Numbered from the stretch's first letter, positions 6,841 to 59,370 are shown. The stretch is 64,000 nucleotides of DNA from Candidatus Heimdallarchaeota archaeon (GCA_018238155.1 JABCTZ010000046.1:1-64000), one strand, 5' to 3'. Notes: a model not told the origin generated them from the letters alone. Numbers and translations: made by a program.

Positions 6841-7024
6841 TATCAATCAGGTTTCATATTTGATACTTGTTAAGAAGAATTTTCATTTATGAGTGTATCT
6901 AACCACTTTCTATTTTCAGAATAGCATTGTTATTTCCATGAAAATAAAATATATTCAACTTCAACTGTAGAATTATTTCATTGAAGAGTTGAGTGAGTGA
7001 TTTGTTGAACAGTTAACAGACTAA

Positions 7025-7939
7025 TTATAAAAGATCTTTTAGAATCCAGACTCTAACAGTTTTATCTGCTGACCCAACTGCTAAATACTTATTATCAGAT
7101 GAAAATGCTGCAAAATAAACTCCTTTTGGTTTTAATGGAATTTCTTTAATCAACTCGCCTGTTTTCAATGATCTTAATTGTAATTTGTAAGGCAAGGATA
7201 AGGTAAAATGTTTTTCATCAGCAGAAAAAGCAACAGAATGCATTTCTGTAAATTTAACGTTAAATTCTTTTTCTAAAATCCATCCTTTTGTTTTCCAGAT
7301 TTTCACTTTACCATCATTAGCTATTGAAACCAATTTTTTCCCTTTCGCTAAATATTTTAAAGCGATGATGCCAGATGAATGTGAATCGATTTCCTTTACT
7401 AATTTACACGAAGGTAGTTTCCAAATAGCAATTTTGTTATCACTTGCTCCTGTCGCAATATGAGAGCAATTTGGTGCAAAGCTTACACTAGTAACATTTG
7501 CTATATGACTATCCAAAGTATCAAATAATTCCATTGATTCATAAGACCATAAATGAACCTTATTGTCGTAAGATCCTGTTGCAATTAGAGCGTTACAAGA
7601 GGAAAATTCAACAACAACTATTGATTTTTTGTGAGCAGAAAATACACCTATTTCTTTTTGTGAATTTAATTCCCATATTCTCATGGTTTTATCACTTGAA
7701 CCTGTAATAAGCACATCCTGGTCATTGCTCAATGCAAATGCATTCACACTTTTTTCATGACCTATTAATTCTCCTTTGAGTTCCCACGACGGGACCGACC
7801 AAAACTTTATCACATTATCCATTCCGGCTGTGATAAGTATCTCATTGTCGTGTGAAAATCTTATCTGCATTACATGACTAGCATGTGCTTGGATTATATC
7901 AGGTTCAACCATTCGATTCGCCTTTTCGTTTAAGTGCAT
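7025..7939 (-). CDS. WD40-repeat beta-propeller protein (7 blades)
   Basis: Repeated H...V....FS....L.TGS.D..V.IW units. Confidence 0.95.
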   Translation of the reverse strand: MHLNEKANRMVEPDIIQAHASHVMQIRFSHDNEILITAGMDNVIKFWSVPSWELKGELIGHEKSVNAFALSNDQDVLITGSSDKTMRIWELNSQKEIGVFSAHKKSIVVVEFSSCNALIATGSYDNKVHLWSYESMELFDTLDSHIANVTSVSFAPNCSHIATGASDNKIAIWKLPSCKLVKEIDSHSSGIIALKYLAKGKKLVSIANDGKVKIWKTKGWILEKEFNVKFTEMHSVAFSADEKHFTLSLPYKLQLRSLKTGELIKEIPLKPKGVYFAAFSSDNKYLAVGSADKTVRVWILKDLL

Positions 7940-8104
7940 TATATACTCTATTCAATGTGTTAGAAGAATTTAGTCATTAAGAATATATTAAACGCTTACT
8001 TATTTTTTTTAGAATCTAATGTTTTCTAAATTTATCTTTTTAAGGGAAAAAGCTTTCTTTATAAAATAAAAGAATAATCGATTTTAAGACAAACACTTTT
8101 CAAA

Positions 8105-11100
8105 TTAGAGATGGTGTTTCCTTAAGATATCGATTAATTCATGATTCAATGGGTAAAGAATGAATAATAAATCATATTCAATTGTTTTTTTAGGTGGAAT
8201 AATTATTTTGCTGATTGAATTTACGGAGTTTGATAATTCTCCATCATCACTAATACTCAAATAAATATCATCTCTATCAGGTCCAACGATTGCTAGAGCT
8301 AATTTTGATTCTCTATCAACAAAAACAGCCCATTTGTCTTCTTGTTTCTGTATCCAAATTTCATTGAAATAGTTGTGTTTTATAAGTTGATCATTTTGGA
8401 TAAAAAATAAATCATTATCCACCCGTTTTGATACTGCTAAGTTGGAGTCAAATCCACCTCTAAACAACAAATGAGCTTCTGAGCTATTTATCAATCTGAA
8501 AGTTGCCCTAAGGATATTTGATTTTGGAAGTGTAGTATAATCCACTTCCAATCTTAAGCCATGGTATCTGTCTTTAGTCTTAAGTTCTGAGTAGAATCTA
8601 ATGCCTTTTTCGTTTCCTTTCGTAAGAAGCTCAGATTCAAATTTCTCCAAATGAGTTATGGAACCCCAACCTGAAGGATTGCCGATTATTGGTACAATAC
8701 CACCTATCCAATCACTTTCCCAAACAAATGGTTTTACTTTTGGCCAGGAAGACAATAAATTATTCTCCTTAACAATTGATGGTATTTCTAAGGAAACTAT
8801 GGAACCAAAATGATCTTTGGAAGCTTTGAAAACGATTTTCCCATTTGATACTTCTACTAATTCTTTTCCTTCTTCCGTTTGCACTTTATTTCGTTTTACT
8901 TTTTGATCTTTATTTAGTACTTGAACAAGAAATGGTAAACTGATGCTCATATCAAGTAAAATAATTTTTACATCTATTGAATGAATTCGTCCTTGTGAAG
9001 TTTCTTGTGCAAGAATTTTTTGCGCGCAATGATAAGGTTGTTTTTCTGATAATTCATCCACCTCTTCTTCAAAGAGATGTAATCCGTTTTCAAAGGTTAA
9101 ACCCTTAGGTAAACAAATGTGTATTTTTCCTTTTATTTTTCTCCGAGTATTGTTGTGAATTGTCAATTTTAGCGTATCATCAAAATTTAATGGAAGAATA
9201 TCAAAATAGGTTTGCTTACCGAAAGTGTCTGATTCAACCTCTACGAACAATTCATCAATAGTTTTATTTTTTTGTTTATTGGTAGAAATACTTGTTGAAA
9301 ATTTCTTTTCAACGGTATCCTTCCAGATTTTCCGAATATCTGTCCAAGAACCTCTTCCAAGATAGTAATAATATTTACCTTCTTTCGATTCTCCGGGAGC
9401 AATATCACCAAATTGAAATTCCAATTGAGGGATATTCAATGCTCGAGTTTCTATTTTAGTGACAAAATCTTTATGCCAAATGAAACCAAATAATTGACTT
9501 TTAGATAATTCAGCACTGATCCAATTTTCAGCAAAATCTTGTGCTTTTTCCGGGAAATGTCTTGTACTTTTGAATACTAACGAATTGCTTGTTCTTAAAA
9601 TTCCTTTTGAAAGTGGGAAATATGTTATTCCTTCTGTATCGATATTATCCCAATCATCATTTAGTACACGTAATCCGATATTTTTGACTTTTTGATTAGA
9701 AATATTTATTGCTTTTACAGATGCTTCGATTAGATCTGAATTTGTTCGCAAAGTAAAACTTCTTTTAATGTGTATACCATTTTTTTCTTTTGATTTTACA
9801 AGTAATTCCAAGGTAACTTTCCCTACACCTTGAACAATTTTTGCTTCTTGTGACAATCTTCCGAGTTCTGAGCCCCAACCAATAAATGGTAATCCCAGGT
9901 CTAACCATGAAGTTTTCAATGAAAACATTCGATTGTTCCTTTTATCAGTTACACTATGAAATAAATAAGCATCAGCTAAAGTGAATTTTAGTCTAAGATT
10001 ATTATTTTCCAATATTGCATATTTACCTTTCAGACAATAACCAGTACAATTCAAACCTATACCGAGAGGATCAATAATAGGTAAATAGATTGTTTCTTCA
10101 GGTAATTTTACACTTCTTTCTTTTTCATCAATGAATATATTTAGCTTTAATGAAACATTCTTATCAGAAATGTTCTCTAAAGCAGTGAAACTAAGATTAA
10201 TATCCTTTTTTTCATTTGCATTTAATAAGATTGGAATTTTGTTAGATTCAAAACTAATGTTAGGGTTTTCAGAAAGAACCACAGAACCTTTAATTTTACT
10301 GAATGTTCTATTCCAAGCACGCAAATTAATCGTTGATTTTTCTCCAGGTATGATTGAACGTAATTGTGGATATAACTCAATTTCTAAAGGATCGACAGGA
10401 GCTAAACCTACAGCTAAATCAATTTCTTCCTCATTGAAATGAATTATTGACTCGATTCTTGGTTTTACTCGAGTATGAGAATCTTTTGGATTAGCCAGAG
10501 GAGTTACGGTTTCATCTAAAATCGCAAATGCTTGAATTATTGTAGTTTTACCTGATTTCACAATGATTTGTCTTTCAGGTTCAGATTCAAATGTCATTCC
10601 GTTGAGACAGTTTGTCTTCAATGTGAATGTAATATCATTCTCAGTTTCATTTAGAAAAGTCCAAGATACAGGAACCTTGTCAAAAGCAACAAACCCCACA
10701 CTATTTTTTATTAGACATTTTATACCAATTCTACCTTCAGGAGATTTTAATTCGAATCCCGAGATTTTTTTAGCTTTTGTATCGATAATAACCTTTAGTG
10801 AATTTTTTTCATCTGCTTCAAAATAGTAATTGTAAACAGACATATCGTCTATTAACTCAATATCAGGAGCTAAATCCAATGTCCGCATAAAGGTTTCATA
10901 CCAGCTGTGTTTATCAAAATAACTCTGAAACAACTTTCGTCGAAAAATTCCTGGAAGATAATTCTCCATATAGACCGAGGATTCTGGTGCCCAAAAGAAG
11001 CCGGTCTTTTTGTAGAGAGGCATGGCTTTAAGATTGCCGCCCCAAGTATGAAGAGTGATAATATCTTTTTCTAGTTCTAAGGCACGAAAAGTTGCATGTA

Positions 11101-11799: not shown

Positions 11800-13857
11800 T
11801 TGGTGGAATTTATTACTGTTAGAGATAAAGTCAATGCAGAAGAAAGTGAAACTCTTCCTCCGATTGGTGAAGAATTAATTAGTAAACTTATGGCGAATTC
11901 AGATTTTGATTTTGAATTAGATGTTCATAGAGAACATTTCATTCGAAATAGTCTTTTCCTCGTTTTGTTTGGTATAATTGCAGGTGGAATACTTGGAACA
12001 ATATTTTATTTTATACTCGAATATACCAATATTATTAATCAATATGCGATTCTAGGAATAGGTGCTGGTGTTGGTCTTGCATTTGGCATTGTTATTGGAA
12101 TTTGTCTAATTATCGCTTTAAAAGCACAAATTGTTCCTGATTTTGGCTCTAGCTATGGTATTGGATTTGGAACAAATATTTTCATAGGAGCAGTTATTGG
12201 AATGGTTACTGGTGCCATTATTGGATCTCTTTTTGGGTTAATCCTTAAAGCAACAGGCTATATCATCTATACCGATCTCTCCTACCCTGTTTATGGGATG
12301 TTAATTTGGATTGTTTTAGGATTAAATATTGGTGTTTTAATTGGGCTGATTACGAGTTTTGGTTCAATAGATATTATTGTAGGAGGAGCGATTGCAGGTT
12401 GTATTGTTGGTCCTTTAGGTTCGCTTGCAATTTTTGGTCCAAATTGGATTGTTGTTGGAGGAGTGGCAGTAGGTCTTGTTGTAGGGGCAGTTATTGGTGT
12501 CTTTTCAAAATATAGTATTAGAGCAAGTATGGGATCAATTTCACAACCACTGTGTAATCCTAGTGAGCTTGGAGATAAAATAAAAAATGATATTGATGAA
12601 AGTATAAGAAAATCAACTAGGAGGAGAAGACGAAGCAGATATTATAATAGATATAGTAACTCCTGTTTTGGACCAACTTATACAACATCATATGCATGTC
12701 ACGATTCTGATGATTCAGATGATTGCGGAGGAGATAGAGACGGAGGAGGAAGTTGTGCTCAAGCATTAGTTCCTTTGATTTTATTAATTTTATTAGCCGG
12801 AGTAGTAATAGTGCTAATTTCTTTCATCTCATGGGTTTCTGTTAAAGCAAGTACGAAATTTGGAGGAGTAGTTAAAAAAGGAGCATTAACAGCTTTTGGT
12901 TCTAGTGCATCTATACTATTGATTATCGGATGTAATATCGGATTAACTGCTTCATTCCATAACTTGGAAATTTATTATTTAATTATAATTGGAGCAAGTA
13001 TAGCTATGCTAATTGGATTATTGCTTTTCGGAGGTCAAGCATTGTCGATTAAATCAACTTCACTAAATATCACTCCGAGAACATTAAAATGGAAAGATGG
13101 AACATCACAAGGACTAATCAATTTCTATAATGTCGAAAGCTATAATTTTGTCGTTCTATTAGATGATCAAGAAAATGTTCCCGAATATGATGGGCACATA
13201 AAACTCAATCTAAGTAATGGAACATCAAGAAAAGTTCACATTAGCTGTTGGAAAACACCAGGTAAAACAGGATCATCCAGATATTTACAGACTATCCTTC
13301 AACATTATCTTGTACAAGTTGCAGAAATCAAAGTTCAACAAAAAGCAAGAAGTGACAAAATTAAAAGTACAACCATTCTACAAGAAAGCGATAAACCAAG
13401 AAGAAGAACATATCGTGAAAGCATTGAAGATGGCAAAATTCAAGCAAGAGAAAAAAGAGAAACAGAATTGAGAAAGCGAGTAAGTGAAAAAGAAATCAAT
13501 GCAATAAAGGATTTAGTAGATGATCGAGACAAAATGAGTGCCAATTGGATCAGCAGAGTAACACAGATACCTGAAAACCGTGTTATTGATATTGCTACAA
13601 TGATTTTAGATAAAGAGTACAAAAATGGTTTCATTGTTTCAGCTAAGCAACTCGAAAAATCAAAAGTTAGAACTAAATTTAGTAAAAAGCAAATTCATAA
13701 GGTTAAAGATATTGTCGATGCTCGCAAAAAAATAAGTGTTGCTTATTTAAGCAAAGTAACTGGATTAACTAAGAATCAGGTAATCAAGATTGCTACTGAA
13801 CATTTAGATAAACTTGTGGTTAAGGGATATATCATCTCTAATGATATTTTCGAGTAA
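11800..13857 (+). CDS. Multi-pass membrane protein with Gly-zipper helices, Arg/Cys-rich loop and two C-terminal winged-helix-like repeats
   Basis: About 9 hydrophobic GxxxG-rich helices; RRRRRSR and Cys/Asp/Gly segment; duplicated C-terminal unit KD.VD.R.K.S....S.VT......VI.IAT..LDK....G.I.S. Confidence 0.75.
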   Translation: MVEFITVRDKVNAEESETLPPIGEELISKLMANSDFDFELDVHREHFIRNSLFLVLFGIIAGGILGTIFYFILEYTNIINQYAILGIGAGVGLAFGIVIGICLIIALKAQIVPDFGSSYGIGFGTNIFIGAVIGMVTGAIIGSLFGLILKATGYIIYTDLSYPVYGMLIWIVLGLNIGVLIGLITSFGSIDIIVGGAIAGCIVGPLGSLAIFGPNWIVVGGVAVGLVVGAVIGVFSKYSIRASMGSISQPLCNPSELGDKIKNDIDESIRKSTRRRRRSRYYNRYSNSCFGPTYTTSYACHDSDDSDDCGGDRDGGGSCAQALVPLILLILLAGVVIVLISFISWVSVKASTKFGGVVKKGALTAFGSSASILLIIGCNIGLTASFHNLEIYYLIIIGASIAMLIGLLLFGGQALSIKSTSLNITPRTLKWKDGTSQGLINFYNVESYNFVVLLDDQENVPEYDGHIKLNLSNGTSRKVHISCWKTPGKTGSSRYLQTILQHYLVQVAEIKVQQKARSDKIKSTTILQESDKPRRRTYRESIEDGKIQAREKRETELRKRVSEKEINAIKDLVDDRDKMSANWISRVTQIPENRVIDIATMILDKEYKNGFIVSAKQLEKSKVRTKFSKKQIHKVKDIVDARKKISVAYLSKVTGLTKNQVIKIATEHLDKLVVKGYIISNDIFE

Positions 13858-23042: not shown

Positions 23043-26000
23043 ATGACTTTAAGTATAAATAAATCAAAAATTCTAAAATCCATTATTGCAATTGTTATTG
23101 TAACTTGTATGTTCCAACAACAAATTGCAGATGGCTCAGCAAATAATCATGATTCATTTAATGTAGAAATTACGGTTGCAGATACAATTCAAGATTCTAC
23201 TAATTTTGAAGTTACAGGTGGATTTAGTCACGTTTACAATAAAATCGGTAATTGGTCCGATTCCGGTTCAGTTCATAAAGTCATTGTTGAAGACGGTTAC
23301 GCTTATGTTGCAGATGGTTCAAATGGATTCAGAATATTAGATATCAGCAATGTTTCTGATATTACTCAAGTGGGATTTTATAGACCAAATTCCGCCATTT
23401 GTTATGACCTTGTGCTTGATAGTGTTAAAGAGCATGTTTATTTAGCCTATGGAACAAATGGTTTTATTATTTTAGATATTGATAACATAGCTAGTCCAAA
23501 TATTGTCGGACAAACAAATGATTTTCTGATTGGCACGAACGAAACATTAGCTATTGATATTGACGAGCATTATGCGTACTTAGCATGCGGATACCAAGGT
23601 CTTGTTTTGGTTTCTTTTGTAGATCCAGCTGTTCCAACTAGAATTGGTAACGGTTATAATAACGGTGAATATGCACGTGATATTGTTAAAAAAGAACATG
23701 CAGGAGAAGAATATGCCTTTATTACCTTCAGAAATCATGGGTTAGAAATAATCAATGTAGGAAACCCTGTTAATCCAAATTTATATAGTTCATATACTGC
23801 AGATTTAAGTGATCCTTTTGGCTTAGAAGTTGATTTTGATTCTTCAGCGAGATATGCTTACGTTGCAGATCAAAGTGGGTTCTTTATGATTTCAGTTTGG
23901 ATTGCCGCAAATCCAGAATGTGGTTCAGCCTATCGATATGTTAACGAATCATATGCTTCTAGTGTTTCAGTTACAGGAAATAAAGTATTTGTAACATTTC
24001 GGAATAATGGATTAAAAATATTTAATATCTCAAATTACGGTATAGATGGAATTGTTGGTACTTTTACTGATGGAAACGCTGGTTCCTCTTACAATCTTGG
24101 GACGTTCGTACTCGATGAATATTGTTATTACGCAGATGGTGACGATGGTCTCAAAGTTGTCGAATTAGACTCAGATGGAGATCGACTGTACGACGGTGAT
24201 GAGATCAATGTTTATCTTACAGATGAAACTGAAGACGATACAGACGATGACCAAATACTTGATGGTGACGAAATTTTCGATTATTTAACGGATCCATTAA
24301 ATAATGACACAGATGATGACTTCTTAGCAGACGGGGAAGAAATTATTGTTGGATTTGACGGCTATATCACAAATCCTTTGAATAACGATACCGACAGTGA
24401 TGGGCTTAGAGATGGAAATGAAACTCTTGGTCTATATTATCCATCAAGTCCTAATGCCAATATAACAACAGGGAATATTTTTACTAATCCAACAAATGCA
24501 GACACCGACAGCGATGATTTAACAGATGGAGATGAATATCTTATTCATTTATCTGATCCAACTGTTGTTGATACAGATACCGATGGCATGGATGATAATT
24601 TTGAAGTAACCTATGGTCTAGATCCTTTGCTCAATGATGCAGGTAACGATAAGGATGGCGATGGTGTGTCTAATATCGATGAATATGATTATCTTCCTAA
24701 TCATCTTAACCCAAATAATCCAGACACAGATGCGGACGGTTTAACTGACGGAGAAGAGCTATACGGGATTTACTGGCCAGACAATCCTTACGTAAATGGA
24801 ACTGGATACATTACAACAGGAAAACCGCTTAACAGTGATACAGATGGCGATGGATTAAAAGATGGTTTTGAAGTTAAATTGTATTTTAGCAATCCTCATA
24901 ATCCTGATTCCGATTCTGATGGTTTGAACGATTTTGAAGAGATTATTACTCATTTAACTTCTGCAAATTCATCAGATACAGATGGTGATTCTCTTGACGA
25001 TCTTTGGGAAGTCACTTGGGGTACCAACCCTCTTAGAAATGATATAAGTGATGATAACGACACAGATGGTCTTACTCATTTAGAAGAATTCAATCTTGGT
25101 ACAAATCCAATGGTTGCAGACACAGACGGAGATGGCATGCCTGACGGCTATGAAGTTGACCATGGATTCGATCCCCTTGTTTCTGATGGCAACCTTGATG
25201 CAGACGGAGATGGTTTATCCAATGTTGAAGAATATGGCATTGGAACCGATCCTCATCTTGCAGATACGGATGGAGATGGCATGAGTGATTTGTGGGAAGA
25301 TGATATTGGTACTGACCCCTTTGTTAATGATGCTTCAGAAGATCCTGATCTAGATGGGTTATCCAATTTGGAAGAGTTTGCTGCCGATACCGATCCTTTC
25401 GATGAAGATAGTGACAACGATGGATTAGATGATGGAGACGAAATCAATATTTATGGAACAAACCCCAACAAGTTTGACACAGATAGCGATGGTATAGGTG
25501 ATGCTGAAGAAATCAGCAAAGGTTCCGATCCACTTGATCCTAAAAGTACCCCTATCTCTCGCAGAAATCTTCTTGTTTTATCAATTAGTCTTAGTAGTGC
25601 CATTGTCTTAATAGCAATATTAGTTATTTTCTTGTTAACATATCGTTTTACTCGTCCAGAACAACGAATGTTCCGCTTTATAGAATCAAAGAGAGCGGAG
25701 GGAAAGGTTAGTCTTTCCACTAAAGAAATCACACAACATCTTGACAAGAAACTTAACAAAGGACAAATTAAGCAACTCATTGTTGCAAATTCTAAAGAGC
25801 ACAAGCTTGCTCTAATTGGCAATACTATTTGGTTATCTTCAGAAGAAAATCTTGAAGATAGTATTCAAGTATACAAAGAAGATATTTTCATCTTCAAGAA
25901 TGAAAAAACCTCTTCTTCAAAAATCTCTTCCCTCAAGAAAATGATTACTGCTGACCGAAAAGCAGCTTCAAAACTAAAATTAACTAAACTTGACGACGAG

Positions 26001-26189
26001 TATTCTACTCTTCTTGCTGATTTAGAGGAAATTTCTACTGCAAAACAAGCTCAAGTAGCAGCTCTTCCTCCAGAACAGGAAGATGTTGAAGAGAGCTCAA
26101 CAGAAGCTTTCTCAATGCCTGAAATAAGTTCTTCAACTTCTGAAGAAGGTCTAGAGGAAGTAACAGATCCAGAACAATCTGATAATTAA
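23043..26189 (+). CDS. Type I membrane protein: LVIVD propeller, long Ca-binding (DTDGDG) repeat stalk, TM helix and cytoplasmic domain
   Basis: Signal peptide, LVIVD repeats, >15 DP/NP..DTD.DG repeats, TM LLVLSISLSSAIVLIAILVIFLL, about 180 aa cytoplasmic tail ending acidic. Confidence 0.9.
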   Translation: MTLSINKSKILKSIIAIVIVTCMFQQQIADGSANNHDSFNVEITVADTIQDSTNFEVTGGFSHVYNKIGNWSDSGSVHKVIVEDGYAYVADGSNGFRILDISNVSDITQVGFYRPNSAICYDLVLDSVKEHVYLAYGTNGFIILDIDNIASPNIVGQTNDFLIGTNETLAIDIDEHYAYLACGYQGLVLVSFVDPAVPTRIGNGYNNGEYARDIVKKEHAGEEYAFITFRNHGLEIINVGNPVNPNLYSSYTADLSDPFGLEVDFDSSARYAYVADQSGFFMISVWIAANPECGSAYRYVNESYASSVSVTGNKVFVTFRNNGLKIFNISNYGIDGIVGTFTDGNAGSSYNLGTFVLDEYCYYADGDDGLKVVELDSDGDRLYDGDEINVYLTDETEDDTDDDQILDGDEIFDYLTDPLNNDTDDDFLADGEEIIVGFDGYITNPLNNDTDSDGLRDGNETLGLYYPSSPNANITTGNIFTNPTNADTDSDDLTDGDEYLIHLSDPTVVDTDTDGMDDNFEVTYGLDPLLNDAGNDKDGDGVSNIDEYDYLPNHLNPNNPDTDADGLTDGEELYGIYWPDNPYVNGTGYITTGKPLNSDTDGDGLKDGFEVKLYFSNPHNPDSDSDGLNDFEEIITHLTSANSSDTDGDSLDDLWEVTWGTNPLRNDISDDNDTDGLTHLEEFNLGTNPMVADTDGDGMPDGYEVDHGFDPLVSDGNLDADGDGLSNVEEYGIGTDPHLADTDGDGMSDLWEDDIGTDPFVNDASEDPDLDGLSNLEEFAADTDPFDEDSDNDGLDDGDEINIYGTNPNKFDTDSDGIGDAEEISKGSDPLDPKSTPISRRNLLVLSISLSSAIVLIAILVIFLLTYRFTRPEQRMFRFIESKRAEGKVSLSTKEITQHLDKKLNKGQIKQLIVANSKEHKLALIGNTIWLSSEENLEDSIQVYKEDIFIFKNEKTSSSKISSLKKMITADRKAASKLKLTKLDDEYSTLLADLEEISTAKQAQVAALPPEQEDVEESSTEAFSMPEISSSTSEEGLEEVTDPEQSDN

Positions 26190-43539: not shown

Positions 43540-46500
43540 ATGAACTCTAGGATTAAAATTCTTAAAGATATAATGGAAATCGAAAAGCAATTCGCTCTTG
43601 AGAAAATTAATTCTGAAGTTTTCGAAACCAAAATGCATGTATTAGAACAAAAATTCCAACAAGCAAATGCACTAACAGAAGATGAATTACGATTAGCAAT
43701 CGATACAAAAGAAATCCCTCTTAGTGCTAATAGTTTAATTGGTAAAATATCAATTGAAAATTTGATACCAAACAGTAAAGTCCCTCGAACGTTCTTTAGA
43801 CACCTTAAAATTCGAAGAGAAATAAGTGAATTAGAAAGGAATGTAAAAAAATTAAAGCATGATATGCACAAAATAAAGATCCTATTAGCAGAGAAAAAAG
43901 TAAATCAAGATTCTGCTACAAGAAAATTGGAAACGTTAGAGTATGATCTTAGACTAGCTCAAAATCGATTTGGTGCTCGAGAGAAATATCTAAAACGAAA
44001 CCCATCAAAAGGTCACCTACTTAAATTCACTCTGACGAATTTTCTGCAATTCTCCTATGGTCATGGCGTGGAAAACAATGCTGAATTATTAACGATAACT
44101 CAAGAACTAAAGAAGGAAATTAATTTAAGAATTAAATATCGTGATGCTTTAGCAGAGTTACTTGCAACACTAAAAACAACTCAATTGGAAATTCGTTCCT
44201 CTTCAAAAATCGGCTCACTTCCTGACTTTAAAAAATTACGCGAATTTCAACAAACAATAAATGAACTTCATGATTACATAAAATTACTAACTGTTGATAT
44301 AAATGACTTTCAAAATTGTTTAAGCAGATTAGAAAAAAATAATTTAAAAATGGATGAATCACATGAATTATTTGTTGATAATTCATTTGGAATCAATGTG
44401 GATGCCAGTACAGAGAACCTTTCATCACCGATAGAAAATGAAAGTAAACTTAGTGCTTCTGAAGTTGAAACTGATCCGTTACTTAAAACTATAGCTATTG
44501 ATGAAGATAAGTTTGAAAATACTTTCTTTTTAATTGACACATTAGATATTGAAGATACTATTGAAGAAGATAAAGTATCTTTGAAATCAGAAGAAATTGA
44601 TGCGAAATTACGTGTACCTGAAACACCACAATTAACAATTTCAACTGATATTGGTTTAGAAATAGTCGGTATGGAAGATTTCAATTTACAATATAATATT
44701 AAAGGGTCTCCAAAAAGAATGAACGAGCTAACTGAAGGAGTAATCCTCAATTCTTTTGAAGAATTTCTAACTCAACTTTTGGATTCAAAAGAAGTTGAAG
44801 AAGAACCAAAAACGGTAAAAGTAGAAAAACCACAAAGCAAACAAGTGATTGCAAAAGCAACCTTCAAAAGTTTAGCAGAAGAAGTAAAAAAACGAAAGAC
44901 TTCTGATATTCCTAAACCCTCTAAGAGAGATTCAGAACATAGTATTGAAGCTCAAGAAGTAGGAGAAGCTTTTGATGAAATCACTGAAATAAAAGAAATT
45001 AGTGCTTTACAACAAGATGAATTAGAAGCAATTGAAATACATGAGCCCGAAATTCCAGTAAGTGAATCAACAGAAGCAGTTGGAGAGATACCAACAATTC
45101 CGGATGTAGAAAATAGCTCCCTCCCCGAAATTGATTCTTCTTTAGGTGAAGCTTTGTCACCGGAAAAAGCTCAACAAGAGACAAAAGAAATTAGTCCTTC
45201 TCGTCAAATTGTTGAAGAAAATCTGATAAAACCACAAAAAACTTCTATGGTTTCAGAGAAATTATTGGAAGCAGCAACAGAAGCATGGAAATTAACTGGT
45301 AAAGCTCTATTTAATCTCAAAGATGATGGTTCACGTGAATTTTACGGTTACTTGCAAGAAGCAGTAGTTTATGATAAAAATAAATTAGGATACACTTTGG
45401 TAACAGAACCAATTGCAGATCAAACTGTGATTGATAAAATATTCGATCAAATAAAACCTCTCTGGGTTACAGAAGAGCTATTGGAATCAGCAACAAAACG
45501 GAAAGTTTTTCTTATTCAAGAAGTAGTTGACTCTTTACAGATACAGAGAGATGTAGCTTTACATATTTCCAAATTACAAGAATTCTCGAATTTTAGAAAT
45601 ATCAATTTCCCAAGCTCAGATAAAATTGGAAAACCAGAGATTCTTGGCCTGGTGCCAATCAATAAAATAAGAATTAAACGTGGATCGATTATTTGCAAAT
45701 TAGATGATATTGCAGCACAACAACCATATAGAACTGCTCCATGGTCAGCAAATGATTTTGAAAATGAAGAGAATAATCCGATAGGAAAAAACTGCTTATT
45801 ACATCATGGAGTTTCATTTGGTAAAATAATAGCTTCCGTGAAGCATCCACTTATGGGGAATGTTTTTCTTGTAGACACAAATCAACCTGATAAATCAATT
45901 GTCAATTATTTAGTCCAGAGATTGAATATTTCTGAAGATGATAAAACGGAACGACTTTGGCTATTGAAATACCTAATAGCTAAACAGTTGCGGATTCCAG
46001 AAGGTGAAGCTCTTAAACCAAAGACATTAATTAACTACTCATTACAAAGAGGTTTCCCAATACTCCCTAATGAAATTCTCAACTCTTATAGAGTATTTAT
46101 TTCAGGTGGATCTATCAATAGTATCAAAAGAAATAATGTTACTTTAAAAAATTCTGCACGAATTTTCCATCCTTCTGAAGTCATTCCAATAGAATGCTTA
46201 CGTGTTCGAACAACAAATGGTCGGCATTTGGGAACCTGTCTAGGTATTTCCTTATCAGATAAACCCGTTCTTCTTATTTCTGAAAAATTATCTCGAGAAA
46301 TGGTTGCACTTTTCACCAATGCAACTGTAGAAAAACAAATTATGACTGACATTTCAGACTCAGTAATTGGAAGTATTGGAGTAGAGTTACGAGATTCCTT
46401 GTGTCCACATAATATTTTGAAAACACTTATTGTTGGAAGAAAAATACAAACATTAACAGAATATGGTCATTATCTTTCAAAAATGATTGTCACAGGTATT

Positions 46501-46596
46501 GATCTGTCGAGAATTCAAGTCGTAGAGAAAGGAACGGTCTATATTACTGCAATGGAAGTATTTTCAAATCCAAATATCTTTGGACAAGAAAACTAA
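43540..46596 (+). CDS. Large protein: N-terminal coiled coil, acidic low-complexity middle, three PRC-barrel-like repeats
   Basis: Heptads in aa 1-270; E/S/P-rich linker; repeats starting LTGKALF, PIGKNCL and IECLRVRTTNGRHLG. Confidence 0.7.
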   Translation: MNSRIKILKDIMEIEKQFALEKINSEVFETKMHVLEQKFQQANALTEDELRLAIDTKEIPLSANSLIGKISIENLIPNSKVPRTFFRHLKIRREISELERNVKKLKHDMHKIKILLAEKKVNQDSATRKLETLEYDLRLAQNRFGAREKYLKRNPSKGHLLKFTLTNFLQFSYGHGVENNAELLTITQELKKEINLRIKYRDALAELLATLKTTQLEIRSSSKIGSLPDFKKLREFQQTINELHDYIKLLTVDINDFQNCLSRLEKNNLKMDESHELFVDNSFGINVDASTENLSSPIENESKLSASEVETDPLLKTIAIDEDKFENTFFLIDTLDIEDTIEEDKVSLKSEEIDAKLRVPETPQLTISTDIGLEIVGMEDFNLQYNIKGSPKRMNELTEGVILNSFEEFLTQLLDSKEVEEEPKTVKVEKPQSKQVIAKATFKSLAEEVKKRKTSDIPKPSKRDSEHSIEAQEVGEAFDEITEIKEISALQQDELEAIEIHEPEIPVSESTEAVGEIPTIPDVENSSLPEIDSSLGEALSPEKAQQETKEISPSRQIVEENLIKPQKTSMVSEKLLEAATEAWKLTGKALFNLKDDGSREFYGYLQEAVVYDKNKLGYTLVTEPIADQTVIDKIFDQIKPLWVTEELLESATKRKVFLIQEVVDSLQIQRDVALHISKLQEFSNFRNINFPSSDKIGKPEILGLVPINKIRIKRGSIICKLDDIAAQQPYRTAPWSANDFENEENNPIGKNCLLHHGVSFGKIIASVKHPLMGNVFLVDTNQPDKSIVNYLVQRLNISEDDKTERLWLLKYLIAKQLRIPEGEALKPKTLINYSLQRGFPILPNEILNSYRVFISGGSINSIKRNNVTLKNSARIFHPSEVIPIECLRVRTTNGRHLGTCLGISLSDKPVLLISEKLSREMVALFTNATVEKQIMTDISDSVIGSIGVELRDSLCPHNILKTLIVGRKIQTLTEYGHYLSKMIVTGIDLSRIQVVEKGTVYITAMEVFSNPNIFGQEN

Positions 46597-46647: not shown

Positions 46648-47025
46648 TTAACCTGGTTTCACTTCAGATGCTAAACGGGCAATATCAACATATGCATGTC
46701 TTACTTGATGAGAAGGTGAACACCAAGCCATCACGAAACCTTGCCAGAAGGGAGTTTTTGCAATAACTATGTGCCCTTGTTTTTGAGTGTTTGTGCAAAT
46801 CATTCGACTATTTGTTATATCAATGGTTGAATATTTTATCCCTTGTATCACTATCCAAGGAGCTTTTTTTGTCCATGAATCAATCATGGTTGGTCCATCT
46901 ACTTGCCAATTTTGTGTTTGCCAATGGACAGCACCATCAGCCCCTATTAAAGCAAGTGCTCCTACTACACCATCATTTTGTAATCTTGCAGCTTCTGATT
47001 CAAATGTCAATTTAGTTATCTCCAT
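46648..47025 (-). CDS. Profilin (Asgard-type actin regulator)
   Basis: ALIGADGAVHWQTQNW, WIVIQGIKYS, RMICTN..KQGHIVIA pattern and 125-aa length match Asgard profilins. Confidence 0.85.
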   Translation of the reverse strand: MEITKLTFESEAARLQNDGVVGALALIGADGAVHWQTQNWQVDGPTMIDSWTKKAPWIVIQGIKYSTIDITNSRMICTNTQKQGHIVIAKTPFWQGFVMAWCSPSHQVRHAYVDIARLASEVKPG

Positions 47026-47226: not shown

Positions 47227-50175
47227 TTATTTCTTTCGTCTTGAAATCAGATAGCTACCTGCTAAACCTAAAATGCTAATTGAAATCAAAATTATTGGTG
47301 TAAATCCAGCCTTAACTGTCTCAGTACATTCAAAGAGCAGATAATCAAATTCATCGACACCTGTTGTTCCACATTCAGGATAGAAATGATAGGTACCAAG
47401 GGATTCACATTCATAAGCAAATGACCACATACCATTAGTTAATTCTACCCAAGTAAGGTTGTGACGTGTATCTTCGGGAGTGATAACATATCCACCAAAG
47501 TCTGCACCAGGACCACTAATGTATTCATAAGTCATGTTCATTACTCCAGCAGTAAAGGAGTAATTATATTGTTTAATCCTATGCTCTGCTGTTGCCCATC
47601 GGACAAGATTTCGACCGAAAACATCATTCTGTGTACCAATGCCACTGTATTTGTTTTTATACCCATCACTATCTAGAGCAAAGTTTGTTGACATAACAAT
47701 AACTCTTCCGCCAGATGGTGCTTGGTAATAAGCAACTGTGGAATAATCATATCCTGCAGCAAATTCAGTGACTTGAACCGCATCACCTGATGTTTCTAAA
47801 GAACATCCATAATGATCAACACCGGTAACTCCAGCTGTAAGAGCATGATTGCCTACTGGATTTACGATGAGTGTAGATGGTGAACCCCAAATATCATCTC
47901 GAACGTGTATACCATATTGATCTGTGAATTCATTGATGTGAGTAACATTTGTTCCATAAACCATTGAGAGTTCATCATTAAAGGCGTTTCCATTGAAATT
48001 AAGGAAAACACTTCCACCTGCAGTGACAAAATTACTTAATGCTGTTAATTCTGCTGTAGAAAGTGGATTATATGTAGAACTATCCAATGCATCATCTATG
48101 AGAATGCTGTATGGATCTGGGAACCACACTGCTTCATAATTGCTTAATATATCTGCAGTAAGAACAATACTTTGTTCACTAATAACCCAACCTCTATTCA
48201 ATAGATCGGCAGTAAAGAATTTATATTGTCCATACATGTGATCATTCATCCAATTTGTTGTCCTATAATTGAGGAGCATTCTATGTTCCCCATGGCTTGG
48301 AACAACTTTGATTTTGACATCAACAGTATCTAAAACGGTTCCTTTGTATTTAAAAGTAAATTCTCCGTTGTAAGTACCAGGCGCAGTGGTTACTGGAACT
48401 GAATAAGTGACTCTAGCAGTTGCAGAGTAGTAGTTACTAACTTCATCTAAATCTAATAAAGCTGCAGCGGTACCTGAAACTTCCAAAGTTAAATTATTGT
48501 CTCTAAATGGTGAGACACAAGTGACAAATTGTTCTACCACTTGACCTTGAAGTAATTCAGCATAAATAGATACTGGATTAGTAAGTGGATTAAGAGCACC
48601 AATGATTGGATAATTGCCTTCTTTATCAGCATTTATTAACAAAGTAGCTGCGGCACCAACGTTAGCCATACCTCTACCTTGTATTAAGTGATCAAATGAA
48701 TGTGTTGGTAATGGTTTTGCTGTGTACATTAAAGCACTTTTAATTGCACCAGGATTATATGAGAGACTTTCTGTTTTACAAACATCAACTAATATAGCTG
48801 CAGCACCGGCTATTTGTGGTGCGGACATAGAAGTACCACTCATTGAAACATATCCAGTATCAGATTGATAACTGCAAGACATGATACCGTAACCAGGAGC
48901 TACTAAATCTGGTTTCATTGTATTATCAGCATTTGGTCCTAGAGATGAGAAATAAGCCATACTTAATGGAAGTGAAGAGTCATCTGCTGCACCAACAGAA
49001 ATAGCTGCGGTAGGAGAATCTGTAGAATAAACACCTTGATCGCCTTCATTACCGTTTGAATGAACAAATTTTACTCCGTTATTATTAACAACGTTCGTAA
49101 TAGCTGCTTCTAGAATATTGATACTTGGTTCCGCTCCACATCCAAAGCTCATATTGATAACATCAGCACCTTGAGCTGATAACCAATTTACACCGGCAAT
49201 CATTGATACCAATGTTGCGGGAGCACCATCTTCGTGATGATCACCAATTTTTGCTGCATAAAATGTTACTCCAGGAGCAATACCAACTCTTTGTGAATTA
49301 GCTGTACCATCACCACCAACTATACCTGCGACATGAGTGCCGTGCCCAACAAAATCAGTGTTGGATGTATCAGTAAAATCATATCCATATCCTATTGTAA
49401 CGAAACTTTGTTGTTTACCAACTCTACCTGATAGGTCTGCATGAGTTGAACGAATGCCAGTATCAAGAATTCCGACATTAACTCCGCTTCCATCATATCC
49501 AGCATTTACCAATAGAGTAGCATTCATTGTATTGGCATTTTTTAAAGTATCAGGAGAAAAGGAATAATCAGTATCATCCTTAACAGTATCAAATGTATAA
49601 TAAATATCAGTTGTATCAGCTATTGTTGAATATGCACCAAGACTTTTGATGTCATTTTCAACACCAGAATAATAAGGTACTAAAGCACAACCTGTTTCCC
49701 AAAATATTTCACTGTTTTCAAAAGCTAACAAAGTGGATAGATCAGAGAAATCAGATCCGACAATTGCAACCATGATAAATCTTATTTCTGCAGTAGTAAT
49801 AAAAACAACATCAGTCAATTCTGCAATTTGATATAATGAATCTTCTGTTGTAGAGATTTTTACTCTTGTTCCTGCATCCCAAATATCGTTAGTGCAAACA
49901 GCACCAAGATTAGTCAATTTTTGCAAATCAAGGGAATCAATGCGATGATTGAATTTGATAGCAATCTCATCTGAGTATCCGTTGGTAAATGCCGTGGTAC
50001 TCAATAATTTATCGTCTATTTTATCTCCATTATTATCAATTGCTTCTTTCATGTACAAAGTTGGTTCTGTAACACTAAAAGCGGACACATTAATATTAGC
50101 AATTATTTTGGGTCCGGCAGCAGATAATATGAATAATGATAGAAGACTTAAACCTAGAATAGTTCCTTTCTTCAT
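47227..50175 (-). CDS. Membrane-anchored S8 subtilisin-like serine protease with site-1 protease (SKI-1/S1P)-like C-terminal domains
   Basis: Catalytic motifs VGILDTG, GHGTHVAG, SNGNEG, SGTSMSAP; signal peptide and prodomain; Ig-like and GATase-like domains; AGF plus TM plus RRKK tail. Confidence 0.92.
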   Translation of the reverse strand: MKKGTILGLSLLSLFILSAAGPKIIANINVSAFSVTEPTLYMKEAIDNNGDKIDDKLLSTTAFTNGYSDEIAIKFNHRIDSLDLQKLTNLGAVCTNDIWDAGTRVKISTTEDSLYQIAELTDVVFITTAEIRFIMVAIVGSDFSDLSTLLAFENSEIFWETGCALVPYYSGVENDIKSLGAYSTIADTTDIYYTFDTVKDDTDYSFSPDTLKNANTMNATLLVNAGYDGSGVNVGILDTGIRSTHADLSGRVGKQQSFVTIGYGYDFTDTSNTDFVGHGTHVAGIVGGDGTANSQRVGIAPGVTFYAAKIGDHHEDGAPATLVSMIAGVNWLSAQGADVINMSFGCGAEPSINILEAAITNVVNNNGVKFVHSNGNEGDQGVYSTDSPTAAISVGAADDSSLPLSMAYFSSLGPNADNTMKPDLVAPGYGIMSCSYQSDTGYVSMSGTSMSAPQIAGAAAILVDVCKTESLSYNPGAIKSALMYTAKPLPTHSFDHLIQGRGMANVGAAATLLINADKEGNYPIIGALNPLTNPVSIYAELLQGQVVEQFVTCVSPFRDNNLTLEVSGTAAALLDLDEVSNYYSATARVTYSVPVTTAPGTYNGEFTFKYKGTVLDTVDVKIKVVPSHGEHRMLLNYRTTNWMNDHMYGQYKFFTADLLNRGWVISEQSIVLTADILSNYEAVWFPDPYSILIDDALDSSTYNPLSTAELTALSNFVTAGGSVFLNFNGNAFNDELSMVYGTNVTHINEFTDQYGIHVRDDIWGSPSTLIVNPVGNHALTAGVTGVDHYGCSLETSGDAVQVTEFAAGYDYSTVAYYQAPSGGRVIVMSTNFALDSDGYKNKYSGIGTQNDVFGRNLVRWATAEHRIKQYNYSFTAGVMNMTYEYISGPGADFGGYVITPEDTRHNLTWVELTNGMWSFAYECESLGTYHFYPECGTTGVDEFDYLLFECTETVKAGFTPIILISISILGLAGSYLISRRKK

Positions 50176-50310: not shown

Positions 50311-51261
50311 TCACAAACGACTTGCTATTTTAAAGGTAATTTCTATGAGTGCTTGTAAAGAATTGCTGAACAGATATGTAATGGGTTCAATTCCGACTCC
50401 CCCAGTATTTAGTATGGCGAAAATTCCTCCTACTTTAATTGGTTCAATTAGTTCTTTCAATATCACATGCGCTTTTTTCGTTTTTTTCTCCTTGAATAGT
50501 TTTTCAAATTCATTATTTGGAAAAGTATGATATTTGATAGCCAAATTCTCCATTATTCGAAGAACTTTATCATTGTTAACAATATTTATTGTGCTATTAA
50601 AGGAAGGAGAATAAGCATTTATAGTCAAAAGTATTTGAGCCATGTGTTTTGATGCACCAAATTCTGGTGGAAGAAGTGCGCGTACTTTCCCTCTAATTTT
50701 TGTTATTCGTCCAGGAAACGCAGCAATATCATCTATTGTTTTCGGTTCTGGCAAACATTTGCATATATTGAGCAACACTTGGGGCATTACCTTTACAAAA
50801 TCTTCCTTTCTCTCCATTGCGGATAATACTTCCAATAATTCAGTAATAACTTTCTTTCTACTTTCGATTAGAATTTCATCTGTTATCGGTAAGCATCCTT
50901 GGCACCCGGCAGTTATTCCCGGATAACTTTTCACATGCTTTCTACAAGTTAAACCACTTATTCGGAGATTCACACAACTAGAGCAAATTTTTCTGATGAT
51001 TTCTTCAGGTGAAGCATTGTTGATAGAACTAGCAACAATATCATTAACTAGCAGCTTCACAGTATTACTTTCAAGATATTCCTCCTTACCTTCCGCTCGA
51101 ATAGTATCTAATGATTTAAGATAACTACTTATCGTTGGTTGGCTTACACCCATTTTTTCAGCAACTTCACTTTGGGTCATATGATTTATCAATTCTTGAG
51201 CTACCAGCCCACGGACAAGTGGTAAAAAATTCTGAGTTACAATTTCACAAGGAGGACGCAT
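50311..51261 (-). CDS. ThiR-like regulator: HTH fused to thiamine-phosphate synthase ThiN-like domain
   Basis: MRPPCE...MTQSEVAEKMGVSQPTISSYL HTH; PQVLLNI, AAFPGRI, PEFGASKHMA, GGVGIEPITY. Confidence 0.85.
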   Translation of the reverse strand: MRPPCEIVTQNFLPLVRGLVAQELINHMTQSEVAEKMGVSQPTISSYLKSLDTIRAEGKEEYLESNTVKLLVNDIVASSINNASPEEIIRKICSSCVNLRISGLTCRKHVKSYPGITAGCQGCLPITDEILIESRKKVITELLEVLSAMERKEDFVKVMPQVLLNICKCLPEPKTIDDIAAFPGRITKIRGKVRALLPPEFGASKHMAQILLTINAYSPSFNSTINIVNNDKVLRIMENLAIKYHTFPNNEFEKLFKEKKTKKAHVILKELIEPIKVGGIFAILNTGGVGIEPITYLFSNSLQALIEITFKIASRL

Positions 51262-51382: not shown

Positions 51383-52678
51383 TTATTTATCCATATTGGC
51401 AAGAAGCTTAGGTTTACGATTTCCATCTGCTTCAAGAATTTTATTGCATTTATTGCAAACTCTTACCTTAACCTTCTCGAAAGTGTATGAAGACAATTCA
51501 TGTTTTGCAAAAGATTCACCACACTCTGCACAAGTTTTAAGATGGACGGTTTCATCAGATGCTAGTTCCTCTTGTTGAGGAGGTAGTGCAATTAAATTTC
51601 TTTGAGAGTCACTGAGCATTGGTTGTTGAGTTTGTTGTGGTTGCAGAGTTTGTTGTGGTTGCTGAGTTTGTTGTTGTGATTGCTGACCTCTAGCAAGTGC
51701 TTTTACCGCATCAAATGAGCTTTTTGGTACTGCAGGTAAGTTAAAATTATCAGTAAAATTAAGAATTTTCTGGTGATCTTTTTCACGACCAACACGCTTG
51801 AGAAAGTCACCAAGTTCAACATCTATCAAAGAAAGCTCTGAAAGTAATGCAGTATTTTGAATGGTTTTTGGATCTCGTTTTTTCAGTGTAGGTTGTTGAC
51901 CGGGTTGTCCTGGAATATATTCAGGAGGTTTATTTAAAACATCTAAATCTACGTTTTTTAATCGTAGGAGGATATCATCAAGGAGTTTATTATAAAGGTC
52001 ATCCCGTTTTTGGCGATTCAAGATTTCAATGTAAGGTTCAATAGCTTGATAATGATAATGATTGAAAATATTATCATAAAAGACATCTATACCAAATTCC
52101 AATATTCCATCCAAAAGCTCTTGCTCAGTGATTTTAAAATTTTCAGATAAATAGCTAACCCAATCAGCAGGTAAATCAAACGGTTGAAGAATCAAAATTG
52201 AAACAATTTGATCAAACAGTGCATCCTGATATTGTGACATATCATCAACTTTGCTCATAGCTTTTAATGCTTGATTGAAGAATATTTTAGTTCCACTAAT
52301 TGCATATCTGGATAAACCAACAAAAACTCGTTGATGAGGTTTGAGATTAGAAATCATCATACGAGTAAGAATGAATGCTGCGAGAAAATTAAGCAGAAAA
52401 GATAATAAGAGTCCATAGAGACCATAAGAAAATCTTGTCATAAGCTTCGTTTCATTAGAAAAAATAATCATTGAAGCAATTAACCAAATAATTCCTGTCG
52501 CACAAGAACCTATCCGGAAGTAGTGATAAAATTTACCAATTTTTGCTTGGCGAGCACATGTTTGACATGCACCACTATTATCAAGTTCTGCTTCAGTTAC
52601 ACAACTTTTACAGATAGAAACATTACAAATAGCACATCTTTCTTCAGATTCTACGATTGGATGATAAACGCATTTCAT
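51383..52678 (-). CDS. Membrane protein with N-terminal B-box-like zinc finger, two TM helices, Gln-rich repeat and C-terminal CxxC..CxxC finger
   Basis: CVYHP..CAIC..CKSC..CQTC; two hydrophobic helices; QQTQQP repeats; CAEC...CNKC. Confidence 0.8.
   Translation of the reverse strand: MKCVYHPIVESEERCAICNVSICKSCVTEAELDNSGACQTCARQAKIGKFYHYFRIGSCATGIIWLIASMIIFSNETKLMTRFSYGLYGLLLSFLLNFLAAFILTRMMISNLKPHQRVFVGLSRYAISGTKIFFNQALKAMSKVDDMSQYQDALFDQIVSILILQPFDLPADWVSYLSENFKITEQELLDGILEFGIDVFYDNIFNHYHYQAIEPYIEILNRQKRDDLYNKLLDDILLRLKNVDLDVLNKPPEYIPGQPGQQPTLKKRDPKTIQNTALLSELSLIDVELGDFLKRVGREKDHQKILNFTDNFNLPAVPKSSFDAVKALARGQQSQQQTQQPQQTLQPQQTQQPMLSDSQRNLIALPPQQEELASDETVHLKTCAECGESFAKHELSSYTFEKVKVRVCNKCNKILEADGNRKPKLLANMDK
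51621..51674. repeat. 18-bp tandem repeat x3 (GGTTGYWGAGTTTGTTGT)
   Basis: Direct inspection; encodes QQTQQP/QQTLQP units. Confidence 0.9.
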
Positions 52679-52796: not shown

Positions 52797-53465
52797 TTAT
52801 CTTCCAATTTCTTTTGATACACCAGGTTCTAAAACATAAACATCAATCATTGGACCAGCAATTTCAATAAATTCCTTTGGATCTTGAACTAAAACTGGGA
52901 ATGTTTTGTAGTGTATAGGAACCACTTTTTGAACGCCAAGTAGTTGAAGTGCTTTCGCAGCTTCTTTTGGACCCATTGTGAATAAACTACCAATAGGTAA
53001 GAAAGCAAGATCAATGTCATATAGATCTCCGAGTAGTTTCATATCAGTGAAGATACCAGTATCTCCAGCATGATAAATAGTCATATTCGGAAGCATGATA
53101 ATAAAACCAAGAGGATGACCAATAGTTGAGCTATGTAAAGCAACTGTGAAAACAAATTTCATTCCTGCAACTTCGGCTGTTCCACCAATATTCCCACCTA
53201 AGACATTTTTTACTCCTTCGCTCTGGGCTTTATTTGCTAATTCAAAAATGCTAACAAAAGTTGCCCCGGTATTTTTACAAATCACTACTGCTTCTGCATA
53301 TCCATGATCTCCGTGATCATGTGTCACAAAAACAGCATCTGCTTTCTTAATATCTTCCACTTTTATTGGTGCTACAGGGTTTCCATTTAACCAAGGATCA
53401 ATTAGAATGGTTTTTCCTTCATCTTCAATCATTATTCCTGCGTGCCCAAGCCATGTTATTTTCAT
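52797..53465 (-). CDS. Metal-dependent hydrolase, MBL fold (UPF0173)
   Basis: WLGHA, LIDPWL.GNP, THDHGDH, YHAGDT, LPIG..FTMGP, PIHY.TFP. Confidence 0.93.
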   Translation of the reverse strand: MKITWLGHAGIMIEDEGKTILIDPWLNGNPVAPIKVEDIKKADAVFVTHDHGDHGYAEAVVICKNTGATFVSIFELANKAQSEGVKNVLGGNIGGTAEVAGMKFVFTVALHSSTIGHPLGFIIMLPNMTIYHAGDTGIFTDMKLLGDLYDIDLAFLPIGSLFTMGPKEAAKALQLLGVQKVVPIHYKTFPVLVQDPKEFIEIAGPMIDVYVLEPGVSKEIGR

Positions 53466-59016: not shown

Positions 59017-59370
59017 ATGCCAAATAAACAAGAAGAAAACAGTGATGTAAAAACCAAGAAAATTAAGCCAAAGAGTAAGCACATAATTGATGCTATGCTA
59101 TTTATCGAAGCAACATCTGCAGAAAACCCCTGTCATTTAGAGCAATTGGCATTAGATCTTTCATTGTACGAAAAACGTATTAAACATTTCATCAAAAATA
59201 AAGTAATAATACCTGTATCAGATATCAATGAAAATAACTTTTATTTGGATTATGATTTTTATCTTAAATTTAAGGAACAAGAAGATAAACGTTTTTTCAT
59301 AACCATTGTATCTATAGTTATACCTGGATTTTTACTTCTAGTATTGGGATTTGCTTGGTTAATTATGTAG
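59017..59370 (+). CDS. Small tail-anchored protein (possible wHTH-like soluble part)
   Basis: Helix-helix-IKNKVII..FYLD pattern, then C-terminal TM FFITIVSIVIPGFLLLVLGFAWLIM. Confidence 0.7.
   Translation: MPNKQEENSDVKTKKIKPKSKHIIDAMLFIEATSAENPCHLEQLALDLSLYEKRIKHFIKNKVIIPVSDINENNFYLDYDFYLKFKEQEDKRFFITIVSIVIPGFLLLVLGFAWLIM

Follow-up and report, generated by a model that had tools for sequence, protein, structure and literature searches.

Does the site-1 protease of eukaryotes (S1P; SKI-1/MBTPS1) have an archaeal root? The question is raised by a gene in a 64,000-nucleotide stretch of DNA from Candidatus Heimdallarchaeota archaeon (GCA_018238155.1 JABCTZ010000046.1:1-64000; hereafter the window). 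The gene at 47227-50175 (- strand) is an uninterrupted open reading frame (ORF) of 982 codons, and it encodes a subtilase of peptidase family S8. Proteolytic activation of SREBP, ATF6 and further regulators bound to membranes begins with S1P, which to our knowledge has so far been treated as a eukaryotic invention. A first-pass annotation, made from the window sequence alone, had read the archaeal protein as an S1P homologue. Our analysis suggests that its catalytic head, consisting of the S8 domain, a P-like beta-sandwich and a GIFT domain, probably has, as a single unit, its homologue in the head of eukaryotic S1P, and that it belongs to an active, exported, type-I anchored subtilase of the Heimdall group. 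The alignment is unbroken over both domain junctions and the three domains superpose rigidly; thus, whole-head homology is the best reading. The claim concerns homology and architecture, as judged from sequence comparison and predicted models.

Sequence comparison with S1P

About 40 Asgard orthologues of the protease were collected (41-85% identity). Of the named relatives, the nearest carry S8 peptidase annotations and come from Heimdallarchaeota; others belong to Gerd-, Thor- and 'Asgard group' archaea. Their public annotation is 'S8 family serine peptidase' only. Single-sequence searches of Pfam, NCBIfam and the PDB with the region following the S8 domain gave sub-threshold matches only, and family profiles were therefore needed.

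A profile of 48 diverse Asgard S8-to-GIFT segments (A4) was searched against the PDB sequences. Human S1P was the third match in the PDB (E 1.5e-78, 266-268 bits). The alignment runs without a break from profile positions 9-628 to S1P residues 193-851, across the S8, P-like and GIFT domains and both junctions. Where the last P-like strand passes into the first GIFT strand, VKIKVVP..RMLLNY of the Asgard family is aligned to IKVKIIP..RVLWDQY of S1P. The identity between the window protease and S1P is ~22% over the aligned residues. The other listed PDB matches of this profile are all S8 proteases, aligned mainly in the catalytic domain. A second profile, built from 62 C-terminal modules (A3) and searched against the same sequences, matched IFT52 (E 8e-12) and human S1P (E 1e-7; profile 99-318 to S1P 602-851).

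The first-pass annotation had listed five motifs of the protease in a given order, next to the corresponding strings of human S1P. All five are present in the translation in that order. The human strings occur in the PDB sequence of S1P and are aligned to the Asgard motifs by HMMER; the printed alignments contain NPASMKQALIASARRLP..QGHG, IKVKIIPTPPRSKRVL, DWNGDHIHTNFR, GANIPALNEL and one further 21-letter string. The E-values given above, for the whole module and for the post-S8 part alone, place these matches far beyond chance.

An exhaustive phmmer search with residues 515-982 against 1.8 billion representatives gave 76 proteins. Apart from a few partial, repeat-only ones, the top matches are ~600-1200 amino acids (aa) long, and an S8 domain was present in all nine of the nine top matches scanned. 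All matches with a named source are Asgard (Heimdall, Hodarchaeum, Thor, Gerd, Njord). Eukaryotic S1P was absent from the named set of the 76 matches and from a word-seeded profile search of longer proteins.

Structural comparison with S1P

The full protein was modelled with AlphaFold2 from an alignment of 37 full-length orthologues (A1; 43-83% identity), with a mean predicted local distance difference test score (pLDDT) of 84.7 and a predicted template-modelling score (pTM) of 0.76. The linker ahead of the S8 domain (~200-207) is poorly predicted. A second model, covering residues 515-955, has a pLDDT of 92.2 and a pTM of 0.90. The S1P structures (2024) are later than the AlphaFold2 training set, and a memorised arrangement is therefore unlikely.

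In the Foldseek search with the full model, the S1P ectodomain came first (9CSD, E 1.5e-37; 8UW8, E 1.3e-35; 758 aligned columns), followed by Bacillus Vpr (3e-28) and Tk-SP of Thermococcus kodakarensis (4e-26). The first-pass annotation had proposed a comparison of the post-S8 region with MBTPS1; S1P is again the top PDB match of the C-terminal model (pLDDT 92). According to the VIA superposition, 591 residues of the model (207-867) are fitted to S1P 190-874 at 3.8 Å; the next longest alignment has 401 residues. In the predicted model, the S8, P-like and GIFT domains superpose on S1P together as one rigid body. Among all matches in the PDB searches, only S1P gave an alignment covering both the S8 and the GIFT domain.

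In the S1P structure, the S8 domain is followed by the P-like subdomain (479-616), the GIFT subdomain (617-998), a transmembrane (TM) helix and a tail, with the GIFT domain lending stability to the S8 loops that surround the oxyanion Asn (PMC11231238). The same succession is found in the archaeal model. The P-like beta-sandwich lies directly after the S8 domain, is packed on it and falls within the 591-residue superposition. The GIFT domain comes after the P-like domain and is packed on the S8 domain; the sequence alignment continues through S1P 851 and the superposition through 874. The P-like sandwich aligns also to the beta-sandwich of Tk-SP and Vpr. As both of these have such a sandwich, this feature is not exclusive to S1P.

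Whole-head homology or independent fusion

A pyrolysin- or Tk-SP-type subtilase could instead have gained a common GIFT/DUF4350 domain by itself. Its resemblance to S1P would in that case come from domain types held in common and not from descent of the fused module, and the enzyme would serve bulk extracellular degradation in a peptide-fermenting cell. Several results weigh against whole-head homology and fit such a fusion. Tk-SP alone ranks above S1P in the A4 search (294 bits, S8 domain only; subtilisin BPN' reaches ~240 bits), and it is the best match of the S8 domain taken alone. The post-S8 beta-sandwich of Tk-SP and Vpr points the same way. The GIFT domain taken alone is as close or closer to IFT52, OST48, DUF4350 and ABC_transp_aux than to S1P. 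With the orthologue profile of the post-S8 region, IFT52_GIFT, ABC_transp_aux, OST48_N, DUF4350 and MBTPS1_4th were all matched weakly, below threshold and at comparable levels. The Pfam model of S1P itself, MBTPS1_4th, gives 12.2 bits on the protease, below its cut-off of 27 bits. It matches 12 of the 37 orthologues at E<=1 (best 1.6e-4), and IFT52_GIFT and ABC_transp_aux are equally good there. It exceeds the cut-off in a Heimdall-class paralogue from another genome (27.7 bits), a protein on which DUF4350 scores 31.9. Finally, another S8-spacer-GIFT protein, a giant one of different architecture, exists, and most genomes have several paralogues (three full modules in the source genome), as expected of diversified exoproteases.

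An independent fusion is nevertheless unlikely. The hidden Markov model alignment to S1P is unbroken through both junctions, and a rigid-body superposition of 591 residues at 3.8 Å is not expected from separate fusions. Moreover, the giant S8-GIFT protein scores 157 bits on the Asgard profile, compared with 266-268 bits for S1P. Among 41 Heimdall-class genomes, 8 contain a match to MBTPS1_4th, and none of the 14 control genomes does.

The proposal of an Asgard S1P homologue is thus retained for the head as a whole, through the collinear profile alignment and the superposition, and not domain by domain, where S1P is not the nearest relative. The first-pass annotation had itself named two results that would speak against it. 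The C-terminal part indeed matches generic GIFT/DUF4350 domains no worse than MBTPS1, and Tk-SP is nearer than S1P to the S8 domain taken by itself, so that half of this objection stands. With S1P the protease has in common the order of its domains, intact catalytic residues, a collinear alignment and the three-dimensional arrangement; its family is nearly universal in Asgard genomes. Common descent of the fused module would be the probable reading.

Domain anatomy and topology

The features of the gene are listed in Table 1. The G+C content of the window is ~32%. The signal peptide, prodomain, S8, Ig-like and alpha/beta domains, TM helix and basic tail named in the first-pass annotation were all recognised in the sequence or the model.

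Table 1. Features of the protease gene, with positions in the window.
Feature	Residues	Position	Strand	Basis
Whole gene, predicted 982-aa membrane-anchored S8 subtilase (P0001)		47227..50175	-	ORF listing, translation
N-terminal signal peptide or hydrophobic helix	1-27	50095..50175	-	MKKG and hydrophobic run; model helix 2-27
Propeptide region, two tandem I9-like beta-alpha-beta-beta-alpha-beta domains (67-128, 131-187)	39-200	49576..50061	-	Model secondary structure
Peptidase S8 catalytic domain	208-515	48631..49554	-	Pfam PF00082
Catalytic codon	Asp238	49462-49464	-
Catalytic codon	His278	49342-49344	-
Oxyanion codon	Asn376	49048-49050	-
Catalytic codon	Ser449	48829-48831	-
P-like beta-sandwich domain	527-629	48289..48597	-	Models; aligns to S1P P-like subdomain (chain residues from 483)
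GIFT (class-I glutamine-amidotransferase-like, alpha/beta) domain	630-862	47590..48288	-
Second beta-sandwich 'stalk' domain	865-951	47323..47583	-	Model strands 866-950, pLDDT >90
C-terminal TM helix and basic tail SRRKK (978-982)	958-977	47230..47304	-	Sequence; model helix 959-981

Peptidase_S8 is the sole domain recognised by Pfam (residues 229-496, E 1.7e-46), and the subtilase matches in NCBIfam are all sub-threshold. The alignments with the propeptide structures of Tk-SP and subtilisin begin at residue 37 or 130 of the model. Asp238, His278, Asn376 and Ser449 align to D218, H249, N338 and S414 of S1P. None of the four varies among the 37 orthologues; therefore, the enzyme should be active. 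The domain that follows the P-like sandwich has a GATase1-like alpha/beta fold with GIFT sequence motifs, which places it among the GIFT domains. For the second beta-sandwich no specific match was found, nor do the S1P structures resolve a counterpart.

GIFT domains are known in ABC-transporter auxiliary proteins, and weak PF09822 matches were obtained. The protein might accordingly be imagined as a non-catalytic surface or transporter accessory protein. We give this idea almost no weight, as the catalytic residues are invariant and no ABC transporter gene adjoins the protease or its orthologues.

The hydrophobic-then-basic ending is common to nearly all full-length relatives. We know of no C-terminal membrane anchor in Tk-SP or other pyrolysin-type subtilases. 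No C-terminal sorting signal of the archaeosortase/PGF-CTERM type was matched by NCBIfam in the protease, and the C-terminus is therefore taken as a plain TM anchor. The N-terminal helix is presumably a cleaved Sec signal. According to sequence and model, the protease is predicted to be an outward-facing type-I membrane protein, with a signal peptide, a large ectodomain, a single TM helix and a five-residue basic tail. The type-I topology of S1P is shared in this respect; the feature is generic (positive-inside rule).

From known subtilase biology, export and autoprocessing would be expected. The protease would cross the membrane by means of its signal peptide. Both I9-like propeptide domains may chaperone folding and then be removed autocatalytically. 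The mature enzyme would remain tethered by its C-terminal helix, and the extra beta-sandwich stalk could keep the head off the membrane. The GIFT domain, packed on the S8 loops by the oxyanion Asn as in S1P, may shape or gate the substrate cleft, and the enzyme would cleave proteins at the cell surface.

Specificity and candidate substrates

The S4 pocket of S1P is acidic (T286, D312, D315, N348), and it accounts for the P4-Arg specificity RX(L/I/V)Z (PMC12067269). According to the A4 alignment, the D312 position is Ala348 in the window protease and Asp in the orthologue consensus SFGGGD (SIGGPD in S1P). The D339 position, adjoining the oxyanion Asn, is Glu377, the same as in subtilisin, and neither T286 nor N348 is conserved. 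As judged from these residues, the specificity of the protease does not appear to be readable from the S4-pocket mapping. The low-confidence linker 188-210 ahead of the S8 domain contains no Arg in the protease sequence. The R132-x-I-M motif, nearly invariant in the orthologues, lies within a strand of the second propeptide domain.

The first-pass annotation went further and suggested S1P-type action on membrane-tethered winged helix-turn-helix (HTH) proteins, naming three genes of the window. None of the three products has a Pfam HTH match. For the 11800-13857 product there is no Pfam match; ~11 hydrophobic (TM-like) segments are predicted in it. The 23043-26189 (+) product is a 1048-aa surface protein with LVIVD repeats (E 2.8e-26) and bacterial TSP3 (E 2.6e-22), and not a transcription regulator; a hydrophobic segment is present at its N-terminus and another near residue 841. 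The 59017-59370 (+) product (117 aa) has a charged N-terminal part, a C-terminal hydrophobic helix of the tail-anchored type and no Pfam match. As it ends with the TM helix, nothing is exposed outside, and it is an unlikely substrate of an extracellular protease.

A true site-1 protease would make the first cut in membrane-tethered regulators and be followed by an M50 site-2 protease, as an archaeal forerunner of SREBP/ATF6-type proteolysis. The topology and head architecture are as in S1P, the family consensus has Asp at the D312 position, and an acidic residue stands by the oxyanion Asn like D339. The search for M50 site-2 proteases proposed in the first-pass annotation did find three M50 peptidases in the source genome; however, M50 is present in all 14 of 14 control genomes as well, and its presence is therefore uninformative. 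Ala, not Asp, occupies the D312 position of the protease itself. The genes conserved next to the protease include none of the M50, anti-sigma-like or membrane regulator kind, several paralogues per genome misfit a single dedicated regulator, and the proposed substrates are unsupported, as described. This role is thus very improbable. As the signalling idea found no support, we commit ourselves only to a tethered cell-surface endoprotease, a role that would follow by analogy with known subtilases.

Distribution and paralogues

Of 201 Asgard genomes sampled, 193 contain the P-like plus GIFT module, and it is represented in 59 of 59 genera; a genome usually gives more than one match, mostly several. 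The source genome assembly (4.08 Mb, ~91% complete) contains three full S8-GIFT paralogues, including the gene studied here. The second (C7:190801-195060, L002; ~990 aa) is 49% identical over the C-terminal module and lies ~143 kb off on the same contig. The third (C41:80778-84974, L003) has 734 aa; its S8 domain starts at residue 39, and it therefore has no long propeptide. Tandem S8-GIFT paralogues occur in two other Heimdall-class genomes (L011:2985-5897 - and 6797-8839 -; L013 likewise). The more divergent copy of the pair (P0134, P0135) is of the kind that reaches the MBTPS1_4th cut-off.

A shorter form of ~660-700 aa, which ends directly after the GIFT domain, is found in many Asgard genomes (for example, the 43 genomes of family f10), often with 4-8 matches in each. 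Those relatives of this length whose ends were inspected begin with a hydrophobic stretch and lack the C-terminal TM helix. With the long C-anchored form and this N-hydrophobic form, at least two membrane-anchoring styles exist in the family.

GIFT domains also occur by themselves in the source genome. A stand-alone protein of 335 aa (C3:103902-107501; L005:1324-2331 +) matches IFT52_GIFT with 54 bits (cut-off 27), and a 583-aa protein (C11:26638-29997; L007:1075-2826 +) matches OST48_N with 41.5 bits (cut-off 36). Two DUF4350 proteins are encoded on C8 (L004, L006). With the S1P-like protease, the IFT52_GIFT protein and the OST48_N protein in one archaeon, all three eukaryotic GIFT-domain lineages have look-alikes there.

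The giant protein mentioned above (P0133, L017:4001-10273 +) is a metagenomic protein of 2090 aa; the contig that encodes it has 47% G+C. The protein consists of an S8 domain, a spacer, a DUF4350/GIFT-like domain, more GIFT-like segments and five CARDB repeats. Thus, S8-GIFT fusions exist outside the ~1000-aa Asgard family.

Gene neighbourhood

A profilin gene (46648-47025, -; 125 aa; Pfam Profilin, E 6.7e-5) follows the protease gene on the same strand, 200 bp downstream. Beyond it is a convergent gene at 43540-46596 (+) for a 1018-aa product with no Pfam match. On the other side are genes for an HTH plus ThiN protein (50311-51261, -), a 431-aa protein with weak zinc-finger-like matches (51383-52678, -) and a metallo-beta-lactamase fold (52797-53465, -).

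The order metallo-beta-lactamase, ~415-430-aa gene, protease, profilin and convergent ~1000-1040-aa gene is kept in a Heimdall-labelled (L014) and a Gerd-labelled (L016) genome, with protease identities of 46-49%. The profilin position is occupied by a 74% identical profilin in the Gerd-labelled genome and by a 120-aa gene in the Heimdall-labelled one. The ThiN/HTH gene just upstream of the protease is found only in the window and at the Gerd-labelled locus. The order is not kept at a more distant orthologue. At the window and orthologue loci, the conserved neighbours of the gene did not include a protease partner, an ABC transporter, an M50 peptidase, an anti-sigma-like gene or a membrane regulator.

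A conserved single orthologue with conserved synteny fits specific surface processing and peptide-fermenting feeding alike. With regard to the many paralogues, we lean towards a diversified surface role.

Comparison with known systems

The Asgard head and topology, as predicted, hint at an archaeal root for S1P. The presence of this head and topology across nearly all sampled Asgard genomes would put the body plan of a Golgi protease before eukaryogenesis, and if the homology holds, a secretory-pathway enzyme would be added to the Asgard-eukaryote links. As a tentative but serious possibility, eukaryotic S1P may be a vertical descendant of the Asgard-wide family, with the fused S8/P-like/GIFT/TM protease already in the archaeal ancestor of eukaryotes; selective juxtamembrane processing of surface or membrane proteins might be a task of the Asgard enzymes already. 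If this were true, S1P would be a eukaryotic signature protein of the secretory pathway that has been overlooked so far. Our literature search found no paper joining Asgard archaea with site-1 protease, MBTPS1, the GIFT domain or IFT52, and the main text of two Asgard surveys that were based on structure (PMC12962969, 10.64898/2026.10.28.762692) is silent on S1P and on any peptidase or protease. New here are the single collinear profile alignment, the phylum-wide count, the protease-profilin synteny and the finding that S1P is not nearest domain by domain.

Among the systems that share parts of this architecture, Tk-SP (PDB 3AFG, 9UES) and pyrolysin-type subtilases such as Vpr (8JMW) give alignments that stop within or just after the beta-sandwich and in which no GIFT domain is seen. 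GIFT domains have been described in IFT52, OST48/Wbp1 and bacterial GldG/DUF4350 (Beatson & Ponting, 2004, as cited in PMC11231238). The matching PDB chains of IFT52 and OST48 are not proteases; they are subunits of intraflagellar transport and of oligosaccharyltransferase, without an S8 domain.

S1P (PDB 8UW8, 8UWC, 9CSD; PMC11231238, PMC12067269) differs from the Asgard protease in several respects. In the Asgard protease, the propeptide region comprises two I9-like domains in tandem, and an additional ordered beta-sandwich separates the GIFT domain from the TM helix. The large GIFT insertions of S1P are missing, and no RSLK/RRLL-type site was recognised at the propeptide junction. The Asgard protease has Ala at the D312 position, and several paralogues are present per Asgard genome. 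The Asgard setting would be the cell surface, in contrast to the Golgi setting of S1P. Both proteins nevertheless have the same order of signal peptide, propeptide, S8 domain with D/H/N/S, P-like domain, GIFT domain, single TM helix and short basic tail.

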